Below are positions 2,552-51,838 of a stretch of DNA of 64,000 nt, piece after piece. The notes below the pieces were generated by a model. The model saw nothing but the letters and a program-made list of their open reading frames with translations, did not search any database and was not told where the DNA came from. The DNA is from Nitrospirota bacterium (GTDB lineage: Bacteria > Nitrospirota > Nitrospiria > Nitrospirales > Nitrospiraceae). Every line of letters begins with the position of its first letter. Position 1 is the first letter of the stretch. The stretch covers positions 2,980-66,979 of the forward strand of contig SCVN01000018.1 of NCBI GenBank assembly GCA_004296885.1, written 5' to 3'. The position numbers and the translations under genes are program-made.

Positions 2552-2579
2552 GCTACAGCAAGAGGTGTCCGGCTGTAGC
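2552..2579. promoter_or_regulatory. Inverted repeat GCTACAGC-N12-GCTGTAGC (CTGTAGC element, palindromic form)
   Basis: Perfect 8-bp arms at 2552-2559 and 2572-2579. The right arm centre is 96 nt upstream of the GG of the sigma-54-type promoter at 2671. Confidence 0.5.
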
Positions 2580-2670
2580 GCAACTCCTCCCTCCGGAACA
2601 GCAACCCTCCATAACTTTACGAACCGGCTGATTTGACTGCAAAAATTCTTCTCCGTCCATCTCCTGCTCC

Positions 2671-2686
2671 TGGCTCCCTCCTTGCT
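2671..2686 (+). promoter_or_regulatory. sigma-54-type -24/-12 promoter candidate upstream of ftsH
   Basis: TGGCTC-CCTCC-TTGCT, an exact TGGC-N7-TTGC match, 124 nt upstream of ATG 2810. Confidence 0.45.
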
Positions 2687-4666: not shown

Positions 4667-5808
4667 ATGATGGAACACACGGACGCAACTCTGACAAATG
4701 GGACGCCGGCCTCCCTCGACCGGCTTGACGACCAGACCCTGTCGTGCGGAGGGGCCTGGACCTTGTCCTGCCTGGATGGAATCGAGCGCCGACTGGCCTC
4801 CCTCCGCCGGCCGGAGGCGGCGGCGGTCGTGTGTGACGCGACCCGGATCACCGCCATGGATGTCAGCGGCGCCTGGCTGCTCCGGCACACGGTGAACAGC
4901 CTGGCGACGGAGGGCCGCACGGTGGAACTGCGCGGTCTGCGCCCGGAGTTCGCCCAATTGCTCCAGATCGTGTCTACGACCGCCACGAGCCTCGCTCCGG
5001 CCGAAGGCGGAGGCGCGGCCTCATGGCTGGAACGGCTCGGACTTCGGGCCTGGCGCGAGGCGGCCGACAGCGTCAAGGCCCTGGCCTTTTTCGGCGAAAG
5101 CAGCGCGGCACTGGGACAATGGCTTGCGGGCCCGCGGCTCATCCGGTGGCGGGCTCTGATCCGGAGCTTGGAGCTGGACGGGTTCAACGCCCTCCCCATC
5201 GTGGGCCTCCTGTCCTTCCTCATGGGCGTGGTGATCGCCTATCAGGGAGCGGAACAGTTGCGGACCTTCGGCGGCAACATCTTCATCGTGGACCTCGTCG
5301 GCATCGCCCTGCTGCGGGAGATCGCCCCCCTGGTCACCGCCATCCTCGTGGCCGGCCGCTCCGGCTCCGCCTATGCCGCCCAGCTCGGCACGATGAAGGT
5401 GACCGAGGAATTGGACGCGATCCGCACCCTGGGCCTCTCGCCGATGGAGTTGCTGGTGCTGCCCAAGGTCCTGGCGCTCGTCCTGGCCCTGCCGTTGTTG
5501 ACCGTCTACGCGGATGCGGTCGGGGTCTTCGGCGGCATGCTGATCGCCTCGAGCCAGTTGCACGTGAACTTCACCGAGTTCCTCACACGCTTCGAGGATG
5601 CCGTCGCGCTGCGGCATTTCCTGATCGGAGTGGGTAAGGCCCCGGTCTTCGCCGTCATCATCGCCCTGGTCGGATGTTACCAAGGCTTTCAGATCCGGGG
5701 CGGTGTGGACGATGTCGGACGCCGCACCACGGTCAGCGTGGTGCAGGCCATCTTCATGGTCATCGTCGTGGACGCCTTCTTCTCCGTCGCCTTGAGTTGG
5801 CTGAATCT

Positions 5809-5812
<4 letters not shown>
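4667..5812 (+). CDS. mlaE: MlaE-type ABC permease with an N-terminal STAS-like (MlaB-like) domain
   Basis: C-terminal 260 aa match the MlaE/YrbE permease pattern (REIAPLVTAILVAGRSGSAYAAQLGTMKVTEELDAIRTLG). The N-terminal ~110 aa look STAS-like. Confidence 0.85.
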
Positions 5813-6587
<775 letters not shown>

Positions 6588-8372: not shown

Positions 8373-8379
8373 CTGTAGC
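8373..8379 (+). promoter_or_regulatory. CTGTAGC upstream element
   Basis: Exact heptamer in intergenic DNA, centred 95 nt upstream of the GG of the promoter candidate at 8470. Confidence 0.4.
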
Positions 8380-8469
8380 ATTTCGCTCCACTGATCTCTC
8401 AGCCCTTCGCCATCCTCGCCAAACCCCTTGTTTCGATGGCACTGTTCCGCGATACACTGCCTCCATCCT

Positions 8470-8485
8470 TGGCATGTTCCTGGCA
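8470..8485 (+). promoter_or_regulatory. sigma-54-type -24/-12 promoter candidate
   Basis: TGGCAT-GTTCC-TGGCA with GG and GC 12 nt apart, 58 nt upstream of ATG 8543. Confidence 0.45.
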
Positions 8486-18229: not shown

Positions 18230-18236
18230 CTGTAGC
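18230..18236 (+). promoter_or_regulatory. CTGTAGC upstream element
   Basis: Context CCGCCAT-CTGTAGCAGG resembles CCGCCACG-CTGTAGCAGG at 47709-47726. Centred 95 nt upstream of the GG at 18328. Confidence 0.45.
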
Positions 18237-18326
18237 AGGCCTCCTCCCTGCTCCTGGCCCTTTCCGAGACTCAGAATTAACCCATTGAGACACAAGCTAA
18301 ATTAGGCGATCGGTCGATGGCTCTTG

Positions 18327-18342
18327 TGGCATCGTGTTTGCT
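18327..18342 (+). promoter_or_regulatory. sigma-54-type -24/-12 promoter candidate upstream of the POR operon
   Basis: TGGCAT-CGTGT-TTGCT, a near-consensus match, 28 nt upstream of ATG 18370. Confidence 0.55.
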
Positions 18343-43356: not shown

Positions 43357-44691
43357 ATGGATCAGACCAAGGTGCTCATCATGGGGGCGGCCGGGAGGGA
43401 CTTTCACAATTTCAACGTCCGGTTCCGCCAAGACCCCCAGTACCGGGTCATCGCCTTCACCGCCGCGCAAATTCCGAATATTGCCGAGCGGCTCTATCCG
43501 CCGGTCCTGGCCGGCCCCCTCTACCCGAAGGGCATCCCGATCCACGCCGAGGCGGAATTGGAATCCTTGATCGAGACACATCAGGCAGACCGGGTGGTCT
43601 TCGCCTACAGCGACGTGTCGCACGAAACCGTCATGCACAAGGCCTCGCAAGTCATGGCCCAGGGAGCGGACTTTTGGTTTCTCGGTCCGCGCGCAACGAT
43701 GCTGGCCTCCAGCAAGCCGGTGGTCTCGGTCTGTGCAGTCAGGACCGGCTGCGGCAAAAGCCCGGCGGCCCGCAAGATCGCGGCCATTCTCCGCAGCGAG
43801 GGGCTCCGTGTGGCGGTCGTCCGCCATCCCATGCCCTACGGCGACCTGGCCAAACAGGCCGTGCAACGTTTCGCCAGCCTCGAAGATTTGACTCGCGCCG
43901 CTTGCACGATCGAAGAGATGGAAGAGTATGAACCCCATATCGCAAACGGCATCCCCGTCTATGCCGGCGTGGACTATGAACGCATCTTGCGTCACGCAGA
44001 AGCGGACGCCGATGTGATCCTCTGGGACGGAGGCAACAACGATTGGCCTTTTTTCGCCTCAGACCTGGAGATGGTCCTGATGGACCCGCACCGGGCCGGG
44101 CATGAACGGCGCTACTTTCCCGGCGAGGTCAATTTGCGCCGGGCGCAGGTCATGGTCCTGACCAAACTGGACAGCGCCAGCCCGGAGCAGATCGGGGCTC
44201 TGCGCGAGAGCCTCCACCGGGAGAATCCGGCCGCTGCCGTGATCGAGTGCACCATGCCCGTGTCGGTGACCGATCCGGCGACAGTCTGCGGGAAGCGGGT
44301 CCTGGTCGTGGAGGATGGCCCGACGCTCACCCACGGAGGCATGAGCTTTGGGGCCGGGACGCTCGCGGCCAGAAAATGGGGCGCCTGCGAACTTGTGGAC
44401 CCGCGACCTTGGGCCGTCGGGTCGATTCGCCAAACCTTTGCCGATTACCCGCATATCGGCCCCTTGCTCCCGGCCATGGGCTACGGGCCCCAGCAGATAC
44501 GAGAGCTCGAAGAGACGATCGGACGAGTCGCGTGCGATCTGGTATTGATCGCCACCCCGGCGGACCTGCGGCGCGTGATTCAGATCGCGCAGCCCACCGT
44601 GCGGGTGACCTATGAGCTGCAAGAAGTCGGCGGCCTGACGTTTCGCGATGTCGTGCGAGGATTCCTGCAGAAGGTCAAGGCCCATGCCTGA
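43357..44691 (+). CDS. COG2403-type P-loop protein (cyclic 2,3-diphosphoglycerate synthetase-like)
   Basis: 444 aa with N-terminus VLIMGAAGRDFHNFN and P-loop VCAVRTGCGKSPAARKI. Family recalled from memory. Confidence 0.7.
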   Translation: MDQTKVLIMGAAGRDFHNFNVRFRQDPQYRVIAFTAAQIPNIAERLYPPVLAGPLYPKGIPIHAEAELESLIETHQADRVVFAYSDVSHETVMHKASQVMAQGADFWFLGPRATMLASSKPVVSVCAVRTGCGKSPAARKIAAILRSEGLRVAVVRHPMPYGDLAKQAVQRFASLEDLTRAACTIEEMEEYEPHIANGIPVYAGVDYERILRHAEADADVILWDGGNNDWPFFASDLEMVLMDPHRAGHERRYFPGEVNLRRAQVMVLTKLDSASPEQIGALRESLHRENPAAAVIECTMPVSVTDPATVCGKRVLVVEDGPTLTHGGMSFGAGTLAARKWGACELVDPRPWAVGSIRQTFADYPHIGPLLPAMGYGPQQIRELEETIGRVACDLVLIATPADLRRVIQIAQPTVRVTYELQEVGGLTFRDVVRGFLQKVKAHA

Positions 44692-45643
44692 GAGGATTCT
44701 GGTCGCACTGGGCGGCAATGCCTTGGTGAAAACCGGGCAACGGGGAACGCTCGACGAGCAAACGGCCAACCTGCCATCGGCTTTGGCCGGAGTCGCCGAG
44801 CTGATCCGGCGCGGGCATCAAGTGGTTCTTACGCACGGGAACGGCCCGCAAGTCGGACACATTCTGCTCCGTGCCGAAGCAGCGCGCGGGCAGGCCTATG
44901 ACCTGCCGCTGGATGTCTGCGTCGCGCAGTCGCAAGGAGAAACCGGCTACGTGATCCAGCAATGCCTGCAGAACCTCTTGCGGCAACGCGGGATCGGCGA
45001 TCATCCGGTTGCGGCCGTCATCACCAGAACGCTCGTCGATCCGGACGATCCGCGGATGGTGCATCCCGCCAAGCCTGTCGGCCCCTTCTATACGAAGGAG
45101 CAAGCCGAACGATGGCGCGGGCCGGGATGGCAGATCGCTGAAGACGCGCACCGGGGCTATCGGCGGGTGGTGCCCTCGCCCCTCCCGATCGGGATCGTCG
45201 AAGCCTCGGTTGTCCGTCGGCTCGTTGAGGCCGGCGTCATCGTCATCGCCGCCGGCGGCGGGGGCATTCCGGTCCGTCGGGAACGTGACGGCACGCTGGT
45301 CGGGGTCGAGGCCGTCGTGGACAAGGACTGGGCATCAAGCCGCCTGGCCATGGAGCTTGGGCTCGACAAAATTCTTGACCTGACCGCGGTGGAGCAGGTC
45401 ATGCTGGATTTCGGGACGCCGAAGGAACGGCCCCTCGCCGCCCTGACGGTACAGGAGGCCCGGGCCTATCTGGCCGAAGGCCACTTTGCGCCCGGCAGCA
45501 TGGGACCCAAGATCGAGGCTGCCGTGCAGTTTCTGGAACAGGGCGGGCGGGAGGTCATCATCACCAGTCCGGAGAACGCGCTGGCCGCGTTCGACGGCTC
45601 GGCCGGGACGCACCTGTACCCGACCCGGGGGGACAAACCATGA
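44684..45643 (+). CDS. arcC: Carbamate kinase
   Basis: Motifs ILVALGGNALV, VLTHGNGPQVG and IAAGGGGIPV. Overlaps the upstream gene by 8 nt. Confidence 0.92.
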   Translation: MPERILVALGGNALVKTGQRGTLDEQTANLPSALAGVAELIRRGHQVVLTHGNGPQVGHILLRAEAARGQAYDLPLDVCVAQSQGETGYVIQQCLQNLLRQRGIGDHPVAAVITRTLVDPDDPRMVHPAKPVGPFYTKEQAERWRGPGWQIAEDAHRGYRRVVPSPLPIGIVEASVVRRLVEAGVIVIAAGGGGIPVRRERDGTLVGVEAVVDKDWASSRLAMELGLDKILDLTAVEQVMLDFGTPKERPLAALTVQEARAYLAEGHFAPGSMGPKIEAAVQFLEQGGREVIITSPENALAAFDGSAGTHLYPTRGDKP

Positions 45644-45768
45644 AACAGAAGACATCCTTCAAGAACATGCCGAAACGCCAGGCCAAGCAATTCGCCGAAC
45701 TCAAGCAGGCGAGCGAACGGGAGCGGATCGTCAAGAAGAAGACCCGCCCACAGGCTCCGGGCCGATGA
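45640..45768 (+). CDS. Possible 42-aa highly basic small protein
   Basis: MKQKTSFKNMPKRQAKQFAELKQASERERIVKKKTRPQAPGR. ATGA overlap with the arcC stop, genome-typical codons, and it ends 9 nt before polX. Confidence 0.45.
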   Translation: MKQKTSFKNMPKRQAKQFAELKQASERERIVKKKTRPQAPGR

Positions 45769-45777
45769 GCGATTGCC

Positions 45778-47502
45778 ATGCCGGTCCATAACGCCGATAT
45801 CGCCGCCAAGTTGGACGAGATCGCCGACTTGCTGGAAATCGAGGACGCCAATCCATTCCGTATTCGCGCCTACCGCAACGCGGCGCGCACCCTGCGCGAC
45901 TTGAGCCGCGAGGTGACCAGCCTGCTGGCCCAAGGCGAGGACCTGACCGAGCTGCCCGGCATCGGCAAGGACCTGGCCGGCAAGATCGAGGACATCGTCA
46001 AGACCGGCACCACCGCCATGCTCGACGAGCACCGGAGAGCCGTGCCGCCCACGCTCACCGAACTGCTCAAGATTCCGGGGCTCGGCCCCAAGCGGGTCAA
46101 GACGCTCAGCCGTGCGCTCGGCATTCGGACGCTCAAGGACTTGCATCACGCCGCCCGTGCCGGCCGCATCAACGCGCTGGCAGGATTCGGCGAAAAACTG
46201 GAGCGGCAGATTCTGCACGAACTGGAGGCGCGGGCCGGCGCCGAGGCCCGGTTCAAGCTTGCCACGGCGGCCCAGTATGCCGAGGCGCTGGTGGCCTACC
46301 TCAAGGACTCGCCGGGCATCGGCCGGGTCGTGGCGGCCGGCAGCTATCGACGGGGCAGAGAGACGATCGGCGATCTGGACATCCTGGCGACGGCCCGCGC
46401 CGACAGCCCGGTGATGGACCGGTTCGTCTCCTACGACGAAGTGGAAGAAGTACTGGCCCGCGGTGGCACCAGGGCCACCGTCCGTCTCGCTTGCAACCTG
46501 CACGTGGACTTGCGGGTGGTCGGCGAGGAGAGCTATGGAGCCGCGCTCCAGTATTTCACGGGGAGCAAAGCGCACAACATCGTGCTGCGCCAGCTGGCGC
46601 AGCAACGGGGACTCAAGGTCAACGAATACGGGGTCTTCAAAGGAGAGCAGTACGTGGCGGGGCAGACGGAGGAATCCGTCTATGCCGCGGTGGGGCTGCC
46701 CTGGATTCCGCCGGAGCTGCGGGAAAATCGCGGCGAGTTCGACGCGGCACGGGAGGGTCGGCTCCCGCAGCTCGTGCAGCTCGGCGACCTACGAGGCGAC
46801 CTGCATGCCCACACCAACGCGACGGACGGCCGGAACAGCCTCAGGGAGATGGCCCGGGCGGCTCGCGAGCGCGGCTTCGAATACCTGGCGGTGTGCGACC
46901 ATTCCCGACGACTCACCATGACGCACGGCCTGGACGCCAAACGGTTGCTGGCCCAACTGGACGCGATCGACCGGCTGAACGAGACCCGACCGGGCATTAC
47001 CCTGCTCAAGGGGATCGAGGTGGACATTCTGGAGGATGGCCGGCTGGACCTGCCGGACGGCGTGCTCGGCCGGCTGGACTTGGTCGTGGCCGCCGTGCAC
47101 AGCCACTTCAACCTGCCGCGCGAGCGGCAGACCGAGCGGATTCTGCGGGCCATGGACCGGCCGCATTTCACGATCCTGGCCCATCCGAGCGGGCGCCTGA
47201 TTCAGGAACGGGAACCCTACGACGTGGACCTGCCGCGCGTGATCCGACAGGCGCGCGAGCGGCAATGTTTTCTGGAAGTCAACGCGCACCCGGAGCGGCT
47301 GGATCTTGCCGATGCCTATTGCCGGATGGCGAAGGAAGAGGGAGTGCTGGTCAGCATCAACTCCGACGCCCACAGCGTGCTCGACTTCGAGCACCTTCGG
47401 TTCGGCGTCGGACAGGCCCGGCGTGGATGGCTGGAACCGGCCGATGTGCTGAACAGCAGACCGCTGAGCGCCTTGCGCCCGCTGCTCCAGCGAACGATGT
47501 AA
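45778..47502 (+). CDS. polX: Family X DNA polymerase with C-terminal PHP domain
   Basis: N-terminal HhH region (NPFRIRAYRNAAR), catalytic GSYRRGRETIGDLDIL and PHP motif DLHAHTNATDG. Confidence 0.92.
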   Translation: MPVHNADIAAKLDEIADLLEIEDANPFRIRAYRNAARTLRDLSREVTSLLAQGEDLTELPGIGKDLAGKIEDIVKTGTTAMLDEHRRAVPPTLTELLKIPGLGPKRVKTLSRALGIRTLKDLHHAARAGRINALAGFGEKLERQILHELEARAGAEARFKLATAAQYAEALVAYLKDSPGIGRVVAAGSYRRGRETIGDLDILATARADSPVMDRFVSYDEVEEVLARGGTRATVRLACNLHVDLRVVGEESYGAALQYFTGSKAHNIVLRQLAQQRGLKVNEYGVFKGEQYVAGQTEESVYAAVGLPWIPPELRENRGEFDAAREGRLPQLVQLGDLRGDLHAHTNATDGRNSLREMARAARERGFEYLAVCDHSRRLTMTHGLDAKRLLAQLDAIDRLNETRPGITLLKGIEVDILEDGRLDLPDGVLGRLDLVVAAVHSHFNLPRERQTERILRAMDRPHFTILAHPSGRLIQEREPYDVDLPRVIRQARERQCFLEVNAHPERLDLADAYCRMAKEEGVLVSINSDAHSVLDFEHLRFGVGQARRGWLEPADVLNSRPLSALRPLLQRTM

Positions 47503-47696: not shown

Positions 47697-47723
47697 GCTA
47701 CAGTTTCTCCGCCACGCTGTAGC
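47697..47723. promoter_or_regulatory. Inverted repeat GCTACAG-N13-CTGTAGC (CTGTAGC element, palindromic form)
   Basis: 7-bp arms at 47697-47703 and 47717-47723. The right arm centre is 97 nt upstream of the GG at 47817. Confidence 0.5.
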
Positions 47724-47815
47724 AGGTTTTCCTGGACCGTCTCGAAAAAAGGACATCGCCGCCCGCAATACCCTTGTTTTCCAAGGAATCTCTCCCGCTG
47801 CCTGGTCGAGCCCGA

Positions 47816-47831
47816 TGGCATTGCCCTTGCT
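47816..47831 (+). promoter_or_regulatory. sigma-54-type -24/-12 promoter candidate
   Basis: TGGCAT-TGCCC-TTGCT, a near-consensus match, 42 nt upstream of ATG 47873. Confidence 0.55.
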
Positions 47832-47872
47832 GTAACTCAGCGAGCGCCTTGCGCCCGATCAGAGCGGCCGGC

Positions 47873-48331
47873 ATGACCGAACCACCCAGCAGCGATGAAA
47901 CCATCAGATGGAACACCTATCCGTCTTGGGGCCAGTTTGTCTGGCTCTACTTTATGAGCTTGTTGACCGCTTCGCGTGGCCTGTTGTTGCTTAAGTTCGA
48001 AATCCCTGGTTGGAGCCTGTGGCTGGGTGGAGCCGTCGCGCTGCTGGCCTGCGCCGCAGCTCTGCGCCGATGGGCCAAGTACAGCATCACCGCCAGCCGC
48101 GTGGTGGTGACCAACGGCTACACCGGTCGCGTGATCGAAACCGTGACCATACCGCACATCGAGGAGCTGACGATCCGACAAGGGCCGATGGCCCAGTGGC
48201 TGGGCATCGGCACACTCGTGATCCGAACCGCCGGCGGCGGACAGATCCGGTTGCGCGGGATCAACGATCCGGAGGTGGTGAGGAACCGACTCGAAGCCAT
48301 GAGGCCGGCTGGTGCCGCCCCGGCCGACTAG
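47873..48331 (+). CDS. Bacterial PH-domain (bPH_2/YdbT-like) membrane protein
   Basis: Two TM helices followed by ITASRVVVTNGYTGRVIETVTIPHIEELTIRQG..GIGTLVIRT. Confidence 0.7.
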   Translation: MTEPPSSDETIRWNTYPSWGQFVWLYFMSLLTASRGLLLLKFEIPGWSLWLGGAVALLACAAALRRWAKYSITASRVVVTNGYTGRVIETVTIPHIEELTIRQGPMAQWLGIGTLVIRTAGGGQIRLRGINDPEVVRNRLEAMRPAGAAPAD

Positions 48332-48360
48332 CGTACCGTACCCTCATCTGATGGGGGCCT

Positions 48361-49239
48361 ATGAAGCTGACCGCGTGGATTGATCCCTGGCGTGACGCCA
48401 CCGTCGCCATCGGCCACGTGCACTCGTTTCCGGTCACAGGGCGAGGGGGGCAACCCTCCCGACGCAACTTTTTTGTGGTGATCGGCACCGGCGTCATGTT
48501 CTGGCTGAAGAACGACCCGACCAGGACTCCGTGGCTGGTGACCGCCAAACATGTCTTCCTGGATCAGGCGGAGGGTTGGGCCCCCTCCCACTTGCAGATT
48601 CGCTTCTCCTGGTTGGATGCCCAACCCGTGGATGAACACCTCGGGGTCCGGATCACCCTCAAGCAACGGGGCCGGCGACGGTGGTTGGCTCATCCGGACC
48701 CCGCCGTTGACTTGGCCTGTCTCCCGTTAGCCATCCCGCCGGAACAAGCCGGCAGGACCAGAGTGCCGACGGTGACGATGGATGACTTTGCCGCCGCCAA
48801 GGATATCTACGAAGGAGCCCCCGTGGTCGTGCTGGGCTACCCCGGTGCGGTCGGCCCGCATTTTTGGACGAGAGCGATCGTTCGTCAGGGCATCATCTCG
48901 TGGGTGTCGCCGACCCAACCGCAATCCACCCCCTTCTTGATCGACAGCAACGTGTTTCCGGGCAACAGCGGCGGGCCGGTCTTTAAGCTGCCGGCCGGAA
49001 CGGACCGTCATGGACACTTCGCGGCCGGCGGAAAAGTGGCCTTGTTGGGCATCGTGACCCAGGCCAGGATTCAAAAGCTCCCGCTCACGGTAGGCGGGAA
49101 AGAGCTTGAAGTCCAGTTGAAGGGCAAGAAGCGGCCGGAAACCCCCTTTGTCCCAAGCTTCATCGGCCTCGGCGTCATCGAGCCGGCTTTCCGGGTCAAA
49201 CAGTTGCTATCGGCGGCGACGCTTTCCCGGAAACACTGA
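48361..49239 (+). CDS. Cytoplasmic trypsin-like (S1/Trypsin_2) serine protease
   Basis: Putative triad H (VTAKHVF), D (VDLACL), S (PGNSGGPVF). No signal peptide. Confidence 0.75.
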   Translation: MKLTAWIDPWRDATVAIGHVHSFPVTGRGGQPSRRNFFVVIGTGVMFWLKNDPTRTPWLVTAKHVFLDQAEGWAPSHLQIRFSWLDAQPVDEHLGVRITLKQRGRRRWLAHPDPAVDLACLPLAIPPEQAGRTRVPTVTMDDFAAAKDIYEGAPVVVLGYPGAVGPHFWTRAIVRQGIISWVSPTQPQSTPFLIDSNVFPGNSGGPVFKLPAGTDRHGHFAAGGKVALLGIVTQARIQKLPLTVGGKELEVQLKGKKRPETPFVPSFIGLGVIEPAFRVKQLLSAATLSRKH

Positions 49240-49282
49240 GGCCCGCAGCGCACCAAGAACGGTCGGAAATGGGGGCTTCGTT

Positions 49283-50950
49283 ATGCGGATGATGCTGTGC
49301 CATCTCACCGGCAGCCTGCGGGGCCGAACACAGTCGTTCGATACCGATGCGATCCGCGTCGGCGTCGGGGAATCCTGTCACGTCGCGTTCGACCCGGCGA
49401 AAGACCCGACAGTCTGCCCGCTCCACGCAGAGATTGCGGTCGAAGCCCATGCCCCCCTGATCCGGGACCGAAGCGGGAAGAACGCGCTCCTCATCAACGG
49501 CCAGCGAAGCTTTGAGTCCGAACTGAAAGACGGAGACCTCCTGCAGTTCGGCGAAGGCGGCCCGCTGGTGCGGTTTCGCGTCACGGCCGACGAGGGGCAG
49601 GCGAGCAAACCCTGGCGGGCCATCGTCACCGACTCCCGCGACATCGTCGTGCGCATGCCCCATCCCCGCTACCTGTCCCCCCTCTACTTGGCGCGCCACC
49701 TGCTCGCCGATATCGGACGCTATGGGTCCCCGGCCGCGAAGTTGGCCGCTATCCTGGCCATCTTGACGCCGATCGTGATCATTTTCCTGTTGGGCATCGT
49801 CGCCTACCGCCAGCACCTCGCGGCCGACACCGCCCAGCGGCGGATCGCCGACCTCATCAGCCAGCTGGAAGCCGGACAGCTCACCCGCACGGAGATGAGC
49901 CGGCGAATCGAGCAGGAACGCCAGAGCCTGGCGGATCTCCGCCGGCAACAGGAGGAGTTGGCCGCCAGGTTGACCGCCTCGCTCCAAGAGCAGCAGGCGG
50001 CCCATCGGTCCCAGCAGGAGCTCCAGACGATCCGCCGCCAGTTGAGCACGCTCGAAAACCGGCAGCGGTTCGCCGAGGACCTCGTCGCGCGGTTCGGGGG
50101 CAGCGTCGGGTTGCTGCAAGGCGGCTACGGGTTCGTGGAGCAAGGGACCGGCCGGCCACTCCGCTACCAGGGCTTCGATCAAGACGGCCATCCCTTCGTG
50201 GATCGAGAGGGCAATCCCTTGGTGACGGTCGAAGGCGAGAGCCCTCCCATCGTCATCTTCTATGCCGGCAGCGGATTCCTGGTGGACAAGGCGGGGACGA
50301 TCCTGACGAACCGTCATCTCGTTCGGATGTGGGACCATTACGAACCGGCGCGGGAGATCATGGCGACGGGGTTCGAACCCCGCCTGGCCATGCTCCGCAT
50401 CTTCTTCCCCGACACGGGAGCAGCCTTTGCTCTCGACATGCTCGGCGTCTCCGACACCAGCGACGTGGCCGTCCTCCGGACCGACCGGGCGCCGACCGGG
50501 TTGGCCCCGCTTCGCTTGGCTCCCGCGGACGACGCTCCGCGCGTGGGGGAGCCGCTCGTGGCGCTGAGCTACCCGGGTACTTTCGACAGCCTGATGGGAC
50601 GACTGGCCAAGCCGGTGAGCGACGGGATTCTGGAGGAGGCGGGGGGCGACCCGGTCAAACTGGCCGATGCGCTCGCCAGGCGGAAACTGATCCGCCCCCT
50701 GGCCACGCAAGGGCATGTGTCCGACCTATCACCGGACACCCTCACCTTCGAAGCCGGCGCCGGCGGGGGCAGCAGCGGGGGCCCGGTCCTCGACCAAGCC
50801 GGCCGCGTGATCGCGATCAACCATGCGGCGATGCGCAAGGTCGGCGGGCTCAATGTGGGGCTGCGGACCAACCAGGCCAGAGCCTTGCTGGCGCAGTTGC
50901 GGATCGCGCTTGATCCGGACGCCGACGCAAAAGTCCGCCTGCCTCGCTGA
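49283..50950 (+). CDS. FHA domain - TM helix - coiled coil - trypsin-like serine protease fusion
   Basis: N-terminal FHA-like ~100 aa, TM helix LAAILAILTPIVIIFLLGIVAY, a Q/R/L-rich coiled coil, then a protease domain with H (TNRHLV), D (DVAVLR), S (GGGSSGGPV). Confidence 0.75.
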   Translation: MRMMLCHLTGSLRGRTQSFDTDAIRVGVGESCHVAFDPAKDPTVCPLHAEIAVEAHAPLIRDRSGKNALLINGQRSFESELKDGDLLQFGEGGPLVRFRVTADEGQASKPWRAIVTDSRDIVVRMPHPRYLSPLYLARHLLADIGRYGSPAAKLAAILAILTPIVIIFLLGIVAYRQHLAADTAQRRIADLISQLEAGQLTRTEMSRRIEQERQSLADLRRQQEELAARLTASLQEQQAAHRSQQELQTIRRQLSTLENRQRFAEDLVARFGGSVGLLQGGYGFVEQGTGRPLRYQGFDQDGHPFVDREGNPLVTVEGESPPIVIFYAGSGFLVDKAGTILTNRHLVRMWDHYEPAREIMATGFEPRLAMLRIFFPDTGAAFALDMLGVSDTSDVAVLRTDRAPTGLAPLRLAPADDAPRVGEPLVALSYPGTFDSLMGRLAKPVSDGILEEAGGDPVKLADALARRKLIRPLATQGHVSDLSPDTLTFEAGAGGGSSGGPVLDQAGRVIAINHAAMRKVGGLNVGLRTNQARALLAQLRIALDPDADAKVRLPR

Positions 50951-50965
50951 TCGCCTGGAGGGATT

Positions 50966-51838
50966 ATGCGCATTCTACTGGCAGTCGACGCCTCGCCTGA
51001 CTCCAAAAACGCGGCGGGGATGATCAAGCACCTGGCCGTGCCGCCCGATCTCCACGTGCTCAATGTGGTGGACGTGGAGGCGCTGAAGCATGCCTATGAT
51101 GCGCCCGAGATGCCGGCGGGCTACTTTGAGACGTATCGTCGGGAAGTCTCGGAAGTGGCCGAGCGGGTGCTCCACGAGATGAAGGCCGAGTTGGCCCCCC
51201 ATGCCAGCCACATCCGTCTGATCGCCGACACGGGCGACGCGGCGGAGAGCATCATTCAGACGGCCGAGGAGTCCCGAGCAGACCTGGTCATTCTAGGGCA
51301 GCGGGGGATGACCGCGACCCCGACCTTCCTTCTCGGAGGCGTCTCTCAAAAAGTCGCCACCTACGCTCCCTGCTCGGTGTTGATCGTGAAGGAGCCGCAA
51401 CCGACGCTGGATCGCATCCTCCTGGCCCTGGATGGTTCGGAGGAATCGGCGAAGGCCGCCCAGTTTTTGGCTCGCGTGCCCTTCAATGGTCCGATGCAGG
51501 TCACGGCGGTTCTGGTCTGGCCCGGCCATCACGCCGGGCTGTTCGGACCGTCCAAGGGACTTCGCGACGTCCGATCCGCCGCAAAGACGGCGCGCATACA
51601 GGGCGACGCTCTCCTCCGCAGCACGGTGGCGCCGTTGTCAGGCAAGCCCTACGAGGTGGAAACGGAATGGCTGCAAGGAGATCCGGCCTTTTCGCTCATC
51701 GAGGCGGCGGCGCGGCATCAGGCGCAGATGATTGTCCTCGGCGCGCGGGGCATGACAGCCGTCAAACGGTTCCTGCTCGGCAGCGTCTCGCAGAAGGTGC
51801 TCGTGCACGCCCCCTGCTCGGTCCTGATCGTCCGGTGA
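50966..51838 (+). CDS. Tandem universal stress protein (2 x UspA domains)
   Basis: Two repeats, each ending G..GM......LGSVSQKV..HAPCSVLIV. RBS GGAGGG. Confidence 0.9.
   Translation: MRILLAVDASPDSKNAAGMIKHLAVPPDLHVLNVVDVEALKHAYDAPEMPAGYFETYRREVSEVAERVLHEMKAELAPHASHIRLIADTGDAAESIIQTAEESRADLVILGQRGMTATPTFLLGGVSQKVATYAPCSVLIVKEPQPTLDRILLALDGSEESAKAAQFLARVPFNGPMQVTAVLVWPGHHAGLFGPSKGLRDVRSAAKTARIQGDALLRSTVAPLSGKPYEVETEWLQGDPAFSLIEAAARHQAQMIVLGARGMTAVKRFLLGSVSQKVLVHAPCSVLIVR

Follow-up and report, generated by a model that had tools for sequence, protein, structure and literature searches.

When bacteria, Nitrospira included, are stressed or starved of oxygen, universal stress proteins (USPs) rank with the proteins whose induction is strongest, yet few of their direct targets are known. 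Proteases of the HtrA type carry one or two C-terminal PDZ domains and assemble into trimer-based oligomers. The FHA folds of the type III secretion system proteins YscD, EscD and PrgH are not known to have phosphothreonine-binding residues. A link between a USP and an FHA domain has been shown experimentally in the membrane protein Rv1747, where FHA-I recognises phosphothreonine pT237 of the tandem USP Rv2623 (PMC5549992), and a 2008 survey recorded an FHA-FHA-trypsin architecture in Bacteroides without giving it a function (PMC2605481). Here we analyse a four-gene cassette that can be compared with each of these systems. It lies in a stretch of 64,000 nucleotides from a Nitrospirota bacterium (GenBank assembly GCA_004296885.1, contig SCVN01000018.1, positions 2,980 to 66,979 of the forward strand; this whole stretch is referred to as the window) and encodes a bPH_2 membrane protein (bPH), a trypsin-like protease (S1a), a protein with an FHA-like domain and a second trypsin-like domain (FHA-protease, P0002), and a tandem USP.

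Like HtrA, DegS and DegP (MEROPS S1C), P0002 has a chymotrypsin fold with a His-Asp-Ser triad and, like DegS, it is predicted to combine an N-terminal anchor with a periplasmic location of the protease. It differs from them in that it has no PDZ domain and carries a predicted cytoplasmic, FHA-like part (about 150 residues) as well as a helical stalk (about 100 residues). With YscD, EscD and PrgH it shares a cytoplasmic FHA fold, one transmembrane (TM) helix and a periplasmic domain, but those proteins have periplasmic ring-building motifs and no protease, and no secretion-system genes lie near P0002. The Rv1747/Rv2623 pair likewise consists of a tandem, nucleotide-binding-type USP and a membrane protein with an N-terminal cytoplasmic FHA domain, in a dormancy- or low-oxygen-type setting. 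In that pair, however, the FHA domain is canonical and recognises pT237 of the USP, an ABC exporter forms the output and the two genes are not linked, whereas the Nitrospirales pair, recognised as such by gene adjacency, has a degenerate pocket, a predicted periplasmic protease output and adjacent genes. S1a, in turn, resembles the PADLOC candidate family PDC-S45 as a stand-alone trypsin-like protease of about 290 amino acids (hidden Markov model (HMM) match over residues 40-240), but it is fixed in a metabolic and stress island of the Nitrospiraceae behind a sigma-54 promoter and, unlike its relatives in other phyla, has no signal peptide. An earlier reading made from the sequence alone (the sequence-only reading) had not recognised the cassette as a described system, and we found no publication describing either the Nitrospirales system or its receiver-domain variants. 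What sets the Nitrospirales form apart is the degenerate FHA pocket, the lack of a linked kinase and the USP neighbour.

One operon composed of two separable modules

The four genes are separated by gaps of 29, 43 and 15 nt in the order bPH, S1a, FHA-protease and USP, and neither a terminator-like nor a sigma-70-like site was found inside the four-gene unit, which makes a single transcript plausible. The near-consensus sigma-54 promoter and the palindromic CTGTAGC site that the sequence-only reading had placed in front of the cassette are both present. The promoter, TGGCATTGCCCTTGCT, ends 41 nt before the first start codon (bPH), and the half-sites of the GCTACAG-N13-CTGTAGC repeat lie approximately 98 and 119 bp 5′ of the -24 element. 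The spacing of the -24 GG and -12 GC elements, the upstream site, and a genome that encodes rpoN plus about 22 sigma-54 activators all agree with what would be predicted for an enhancer-dependent sigma-54 promoter, and this promoter is conserved in a second genome of the same genus (G004). We are highly confident that bPH, S1a, the FHA-protease and the tandem USP form one sigma-54-dependent operon.

All features that had been listed for the first three genes (a bPH_2 protein with two TM helices, an S1 protease without signal peptide, and an FHA-TM-coiled-coil-S1 protein) were confirmed. Their treatment as a single system, on the other hand, did not survive comparison with other genomes, as the trio is not co-conserved and stands in series only in the genome of the window (G000) and in G004. 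Outside the genus of the window (G000, G004 and G002), no bPH gene adjoins the cassette, while S1a lies directly upstream of the FHA-protease, besides the window, only in G004 and at loci L031 and L032; in G018 it is 3.4 kb away. G002, again of the same genus, has bPH, the FHA-protease and the USP, and S1a was found nowhere in its genome. Most genomes with an FHA-protease are without bPH and S1a, and many Nitrospira genomes have S1a and no FHA-protease. Of 401 Nitrospirota genomes sampled, only 7 had an FHA-protease, and the largest genus in the sample, with 35 genomes, had none. The homologues and related loci are all from Nitrospirota, mainly from metagenome-assembled genomes of the Nitrospiraceae; Nitrospira sp. 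Kam-Ns4a encodes an orthologue of 53% identity. With high confidence, then, the cassette is a composite of two separable modules, the FHA-protease with the USP (module A) and bPH with S1a (module B).

A degenerate FHA-like domain joined to a PDZ-less HtrA-like protease

The AlphaFold2 (AF2) model of P0002, for which 51 diverse sequences served as input, has a mean pLDDT of 89. In this model, the FHA-like domain (pLDDT 94-98) consists entirely of beta strands and is followed by helices at residues 111-124, 129-147, 150-196 (containing the TM helix) and 202-274 (73 residues), and finally by a two-barrel protease at residues 275-540. The protease domain matches Trypsin_2 at 2e-19, and Foldseek aligned it with DegP, DegS, HtrA1 and MucD (E ~1e-12, target-normalised TM-score up to 0.8) at about 18% identity. 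Nevertheless, the NCBIfam models for HtrA, DegS and MarP stayed far under their cut-offs (24-38 bits versus 416-470 for the HtrA/DegS models), and all four cassette proteins gave only sub-threshold NCBIfam matches. A PDZ domain is absent from P0002, which ends about 15 residues past the protease domain, and from all 51 relatives. H345, D394 and S498 are invariant in 24 orthologues (alignment A1) and in the 51 distant relatives (alignment A2), so that this triad is conserved well beyond its close kin. The catalytic domain is thus predicted with high confidence to be PDZ-less and HtrA-like, with a chymotrypsin fold and a His-Asp-Ser triad. Outside the protease domain, the most conserved region is the segment from K109 to L136, which is invariant or near-invariant in alignment A1.

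Hydropathy indicated one TM helix and no signal peptide in P0002. Because a signal peptide is missing, and because relatives carry a receiver domain in place of the FHA-like domain (see below) and receiver domains function in the cytoplasm, we infer with high confidence an N-in/C-out topology, with the FHA-like domain in the cytoplasm and the protease in the periplasm. This agrees with the earlier suggestion that the membrane separates the second protease of the cassette from the FHA domain.

The FHA assignment itself held up in profile searches, with 30.6 bits for PF00498 against a cut-off of 20.7. The related Yop-YscD_cpl model gave 25.3 bits for P0002, under its 33.2-bit cut-off, and matches 32 of 51 family members. 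When P0002 was aligned to the FHA domain of FhaA (3po8, E 0.016), the canonical GR, SRRH and STNG motifs corresponded to GV, CPLH and GKNA, respectively. Across the 24 orthologues, V, I, T, S or C is found at position 28 and C, Y, T, H, A, S or I at position 45, and position 67 is variable; the phosphothreonine-contact residues are never restored and only the structural residues G27, H48 and N72 are conserved. In the wider family, P0288, P0297, P0380 and P0392 keep canonical FHA motifs. The FHA fold is therefore real, but the orthologue clade lacks the canonical contact residues, and the presence of these residues in a few distant members indicates that the pocket has decayed within the family. 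Given the loss of the phosphothreonine-binding residues, the FHA-like domain probably acts as a phosphorylation-independent docking domain, and the phosphothreonine input that the sequence-only reading had attributed to it appears doubtful. A Ser/Thr kinase partner was also not found at the locus: the genome has three Hanks kinases, all on other contigs, and the genes that were identified in related loci included neither a kinase nor a PP2C gene.

Two cysteines lie in this part of the protein. Cys32 is invariant in the USP-coupled clade and occurs in just 12 of 51 members of the wider family, while Cys45, found in 14 of the 24 orthologues, occupies the position of the lost phosphate-binding Ser. 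They may give the former phosphothreonine pocket a redox or metal site.

A conserved USP neighbour and exchangeable input domains

The tandem USP had been named merely as the gene that follows the cassette. It does follow directly, but it is in fact the conserved partner of the FHA-protease. Synteny was compared in 12 loci of related genomes and 31 loci of a species-representative genome collection, and a tandem USP lies directly 3′ of the FHA-protease, at 50-90% identity, in 26 of the 28 Nitrospirales loci with enough downstream sequence, although the compared genomes are kin and the count does not represent 26 independent events. The two exceptions are L048, with tdh/kbl-like genes instead, and L049, a paralogue in which the FHA domain has been replaced. 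In G035, a genome from another family whose protein is about 30% identical, the USP is located directly 5′ of the FHA-protease, in reversed order. An apparent USP-FHA-protease fusion in this genome (L024, G035:C57, 4176-6650; an 824-aa frame with Usp, FHA and Trypsin_2 matches) was rejected because an N-run (34 X) hides the gene boundary, and G035 counts only as an adjacency of USP and FHA-protease. Such an artefact could mislead automated surveys of domain architecture.

The USP matches Pfam Usp at 7.7e-53 in two stretches and has no TM segment by hydropathy. Its second domain has the pattern G-2x-G-9x-G-S in 24 of 25 orthologues and its first G-2x-G-9x-G-G in all 25, nucleotide motifs by which the protein would fall into the ATP-binding class (UspFG/MJ0577-like).

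The N-terminal domain of the FHA-protease is not the same throughout the family. An exhaustive search of representative sequences with P0002 returned 244 clusters at E<1e-30. Among the proteins found, P0289, P0293, P0306 and P0316 begin with a Response_reg receiver domain, which a TM helix and a coiled coil connect to the same protease, and their homology to P0002 begins at the TM helix. In a Nitrospiraceae paralogue (G335:C57), a YHS domain replaces the FHA domain; this protein is 55% identical to P0002 from residue 106 on, keeps the juxtamembrane segment, and lies among other YHS proteins with no USP neighbour. The exchange of receiver, FHA and YHS domains on one TM-stalk-protease body supports the view that the N-terminal module would be a regulatory input for a periplasmic protease output.

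Two paralogous loci deserve mention. The YHS locus (L064, G335:C57, 796-6467) is a YHS cluster with a YHS-glycogen-phosphorylase-like fusion next to the YHS-TM-stalk-protease, with small extra YHS open reading frames in between. Locus L021 (G006:C48, 3-7680) holds a second FHA-protease paralogue, 38% identical and without a USP neighbour, which is convergent to a type I restriction-modification cluster (HsdS, SLFN/AlbA_2-HATPase, HsdR) and adjoins DsrE-like genes.

The bPH protein and the S1a protease

The bPH_2 domain (PF03703, 5.6e-15) was found at residues 99-173 of the long open reading frame of the first gene, with TM helices predicted by hydropathy at residues 22-40 and 46-64. Having both TM helices N-terminal to the bPH domain, the protein shows a YdbS/YdbT-like layout. 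S1a matches Trypsin_2 at 6.4e-14 and is a chymotrypsin-fold serine protease whose triad of H64 (TAKHV), D117 (DLACL) and S203 (GNSGGP) is invariant across 17 relatives. Its AF2 model (pLDDT 78) found its best fold matches in the protease domains of HtrA and DegQ, which corresponds to a generic HtrA-like/chymotrypsin fold, and a sequence search of the PDB with S1a gave no match. The possibility that S1a and the FHA-protease are recent duplicates was rejected, as their BLASTP similarity is not significant.

Hydropathy revealed neither a TM helix nor a signal-peptide-like stretch in S1a, and a longer N-terminus is excluded by an in-frame TGA (48349-48351) three codons 5′ of the ATG. By contrast, relatives in Verrucomicrobiota, the FCB group, Pseudomonadota and others have N-terminal hydrophobic, signal-peptide-like leaders (P0154, P0189, P0195, P0209, P0239, P0214 and P0242; alignment A3), whereas the Nitrospira-type members all begin with MAGWID or MKLTAWID and are without leader. 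This distribution suggests that an ancestrally secreted S1a moved to the cytoplasm in the Nitrospira-type lineage. Module B would then consist of a two-TM bPH protein and a protease acting in the cytoplasm after loss of its signal peptide, although any role for S1a and bPH is put forward with low confidence.

Canonical Nitrospiraceae copies of S1a, which are 45-56% identical, reside in the same island as in the window, between a COG2403-like gene (orf444) and PolX, with Acs/PDH-E1, malic enzyme and a tandem USP near. A sigma-54 promoter of their own precedes these copies by 50-70 bp, and their variant of the upstream site reads CTGTCGC. In G029, a genome of a different family, bPH and S1a are paired (61% and 71% identical, respectively) behind a near-identical promoter, TGGTATTGCCCTTGCT, and a near-identical upstream element, ATTGTAGCAGGATTTCC, while the FHA-protease relative is encoded on another contig. 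The G029 pair with its own promoter and element, together with S1a standing alone in canonical Nitrospiraceae, makes bPH-S1a a separable unit that is independent of the FHA-protease. Since the identities at this locus (L152, G029:C4, ~4998-6460) exceed those of the S1a copies within the family, and since promoter and upstream element are near-identical, lateral transfer of the whole promoter-bPH-S1a unit is suggested.

At locus L030 (G018, 858-2678), the genes directly 5′ of S1a encode an MlaC-like protein and a canonical secreted HtrA whose C-terminal region was seen by eye to bear PDZ, which brings three different S1 proteases together inside 8 kb.

A sigma-54 regulon with stress-related content

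Across the genome (3.26 Mb), 152 promoter-like sites with at most one mismatch and 126 CTGTAGC/GCTACAG sites were counted, and the motif lies 60-160 bp 5′ of only eight promoters, against about 0.6 expected by chance. The spacing is 97-99 bp in five of these eight pairs, among them all four in the window, which precede FtsH, a cytochrome c′-like gene, PFOR and the present cassette. Outside the window, contig C23 has one promoter with a motif spacing of 99, and contig C20 has three with the motif 113-153 bp upstream. The window by itself holds 12 sigma-54 promoter matches (at most one mismatch) versus 2.9 expected, and 11 copies of CTGTAGC versus 2.5 expected, a number that none of 100 shuffles got to. 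We are highly confident that the cassette belongs to a sigma-54 regulon.

Member operons of this regulon encode an NTPase, a USP, a cupredoxin and a tandem USP; a Zn-ribbon protein, CBS-MgtE and a hydrolase; and a hemerythrin, a membrane protein and a cytochrome. Besides the cassette's own USP, the regulon holds three USPs, and it also has an extracytoplasmic function (ECF) sigma/anti-sigma-like pair on contig C23 that was identified by eye only. About six of the genome's approximately eight USP genes sit on contigs C12 and C20. Such gene content is typical of redox stress or oxygen limitation. When Nitrospira marina was kept at low O2, some of the largest increases were those of USPs encoded beside co-induced operons (PMC8115632), and from this observation and the content of the regulon we infer that low oxygen or redox stress is the inducing condition of the cassette. 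The CTGTAGC/sigma-54 regulon would thereby be a candidate low-oxygen survival programme, of relevance to the ecology of nitrifiers.

A tentative model and its alternatives

The model that we favour, which is quite possible although by no means secure, is that of a sigma-54 stress operon joining modules A and B, in which the USP gates periplasmic proteolysis via the FHA-like domain. In module A, the FHA-like domain and the juxtamembrane helix pair would be coupled, via the TM helix and the stalk of about 100 residues, to the periplasmic PDZ-less protease. The tandem USP, reporting the nucleotide or energy state of the cell, would be the likely ligand of the degenerate FHA-like domain or of the juxtamembrane region, and its binding would be relayed via the juxtamembrane segment and the stalk to switch periplasmic proteolysis. 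The outcome might be a remodelling of envelope or respiratory proteins under stress, with the identity of the substrates proposed at low confidence. That the USP is the ligand and gates the protease by nucleotide state is a proposal of moderate confidence, drawn from the synteny, the YHS paralogue that has no USP, and the Rv2623-Rv1747 precedent for FHA binding.

Several points weigh against this model. The contact between USP and FHA-like domain is deduced from gene adjacency, and, as USPs are enriched in the island, that adjacency could partly reflect co-regulation. An HMM of 25 USP orthologues, for which a positive control worked, found no USP in 80 metagenome loci of distant relatives retrieved with a 10-sequence alignment. 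Given these loci and L048, the linkage belongs to one clade, and the family as a whole does not require it. The partners that did recur in the 80 loci reflect lineage synteny only (trpC/B/A-like, glycosylase-like and ABC genes, by eye). Moreover, positive charges are about equal on both flanks of the TM helix of P0002, the protein retains N67 and S64 near the old pocket and its FHA-like domain may bind phosphopeptide weakly, and the inducing signal is read from gene content alone.

In the first alternative to be considered, the cassette encodes four independent stress proteins that share no more than a promoter. P0002 would then be an envelope quality-control protease, its FHA-like part would serve oligomerisation or anchoring, and the USP would act elsewhere. 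HtrA-like folds are indeed classic quality-control proteases, the USP genes cluster in regulon islands on contigs C12 and C20, and distant relatives are without a neighbouring USP. Yet the adjacency of USP and FHA-protease persists at 50-90% identity despite rearranged surroundings and even through the order reversal in G035, and the exchange of the N-terminal domain for a receiver or YHS domain indicates a regulatory input and not an anchor; we regard co-regulation by itself as an unlikely, if far from negligible, explanation. Canonical phosphothreonine signalling as in Rv1747/Rv2623, with a Hanks kinase phosphorylating the USP or another protein that the FHA domain then binds, is improbable. 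It could draw on the FHA match above the Pfam threshold, the Hanks kinases elsewhere in the genome, the canonical residues of a few distant family members and the binding of Rv2623 pT237 by FHA-I of Rv1747 (PMC5549992), but none of the 24 orthologues conserves the Arg of GR, the Ser of SxxH or the Asn of S/T-x-N, and the related loci gave no kinase or PP2C gene among the genes identified.

The likeness to DegS raises a further alternative, namely that P0002, being membrane-anchored, periplasm-facing and HtrA-like, acts as a site-1 protease whose substrate is an anti-sigma factor in the membrane or some other signalling protein, with the cytoplasmic FHA-like domain doing no more than tuning it. 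Even though the regulon includes the ECF sigma/anti-sigma-like pair on contig C23, P0002 has no PDZ sensor domain and no anti-sigma gene is linked in the loci examined, and this makes such a function quite improbable. More improbable still is a conflict or anti-phage module in which the proteases would be infection-triggered effectors. The sequence-only reading had suggested a "transmembrane proteolytic signalling or conflict module"; the signalling part of this description is strengthened by the receiver and YHS swaps, while the conflict part sits poorly with the PADLOC results, the stress regulon and the housekeeping synteny. It is true that S1a matches PDC-S45 at 4.8e-23, that one S1a relative outside Nitrospira lies beside an integrase and a type III restriction-modification system, and that the FHA-protease paralogue of G006 is convergent to a type I system. 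PDC-S45, however, is a candidate family only and itself a prediction, bPH and the USP have no PADLOC match, and the FHA-protease gave only weak matches, which involve generic coiled-coil or protease parts such as that of RT-Protease_XI; the combination of a validated PADLOC model and a defence island is not found here. Instead, the island is conserved and of metabolic and stress character (PolX, carbamate kinase, Acs-PDH, USPs) with a shared stress-regulon promoter, distant relatives adjoin trp and other housekeeping genes, and the composition of the cassette genes is normal (GC content at third codon positions of 0.78-0.85, as in the neighbours, without deviation). A defence role is thus unlikely, and the evidence points to stress signalling over phage defence.

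If the USP-gated model is true, the USP-linked membrane protease would be a concrete USP target, the second after Rv2623-Rv1747, from which it differs in its output. The existence of receiver, FHA and YHS variants suggests a general route by which cytoplasmic signals could control periplasmic proteolysis, and the receiver variant would be a response regulator with its output across the membrane. A bolder extension, on the doubtful side in our judgement, is that these proteins constitute an unrecognised class of "inside-out" signalling proteases, in which the juxtamembrane segment and the stalk pass the signal of a swappable cytoplasmic input (receiver, FHA or FHA-like, or YHS metal-binding) to a periplasmic HtrA-like protease and so switch it. 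In the Nitrospirales, the input would have become phosphorylation-independent and be read via the dedicated tandem USP, so that, when oxygen is limiting, the periplasmic proteome would be remodelled in direct response to nucleotide or energy state, perhaps including respiratory enzymes of these nitrite oxidisers.

Feature coordinates and neighbouring genes

Table 1. Features of the cassette and of the associated regulon (positions in the window unless a contig is named)
Feature	Position	Strand	Description
Inverted repeat GCTACAG (47697-47703)-N13-CTGTAGC (47717-47723)	47697-47723	none	putative enhancer-binding-protein site
Sigma-54 type -24/-12 promoter	47816-47831	+	TGGCAY-N5-TTGCW, 0 mismatches
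bPH_2 gene (gene 1)	47873-48331	+	152 aa
S1a gene (gene 2)	48361-49239	+	292 aa, Trypsin_2 protease
FHA-protease gene (gene 3; protein P0002)	49283-50950	+	555 aa, FHA/TM/helical/Trypsin_2
P0002 FHA-like beta-sandwich, residues 1-101	49283-49585	+	predicted cytoplasmic, degenerate phosphothreonine pocket
P0002 juxtamembrane segment, residues 109-147, two helices	49607-49723	+	KPWRxIVxDSRDIVVRTPHPRYLSPLYL
P0002 single TM helix, ~residues 152-176	49736-49810	+	Kyte-Doolittle maximum 2.95
P0002 periplasmic helical stalk/coiled coil, ~residues 177-274	49811-50104	+	heptad-like, E/R/Q/L-rich; predicted location
P0002 HtrA-like (S1C-like) protease domain without PDZ, residues 275-540	50105-50902	+	triad H345/D394/S498
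Tandem USP gene	50966-51838	+	290 aa, two Usp domains
Motif-promoter pairs in the window	2552-2686, 8373-8485, 18230-18342, 47697-47831
Motif-promoter pairs outside the window	contig C20 ~18.3 kb and 29.6-29.8 kb; contig C23 ~2.6 kb

Upstream of the cassette (window 43357-47502), there are genes for orf444, carbamate kinase and PolX, which many Nitrospiraceae keep with the FHA-protease and the USP, although their order varies. The G002 locus has orf444, the carbamate kinase gene, bPH, the FHA-protease and the USP as a contiguous series, with no PolX or S1a among them.

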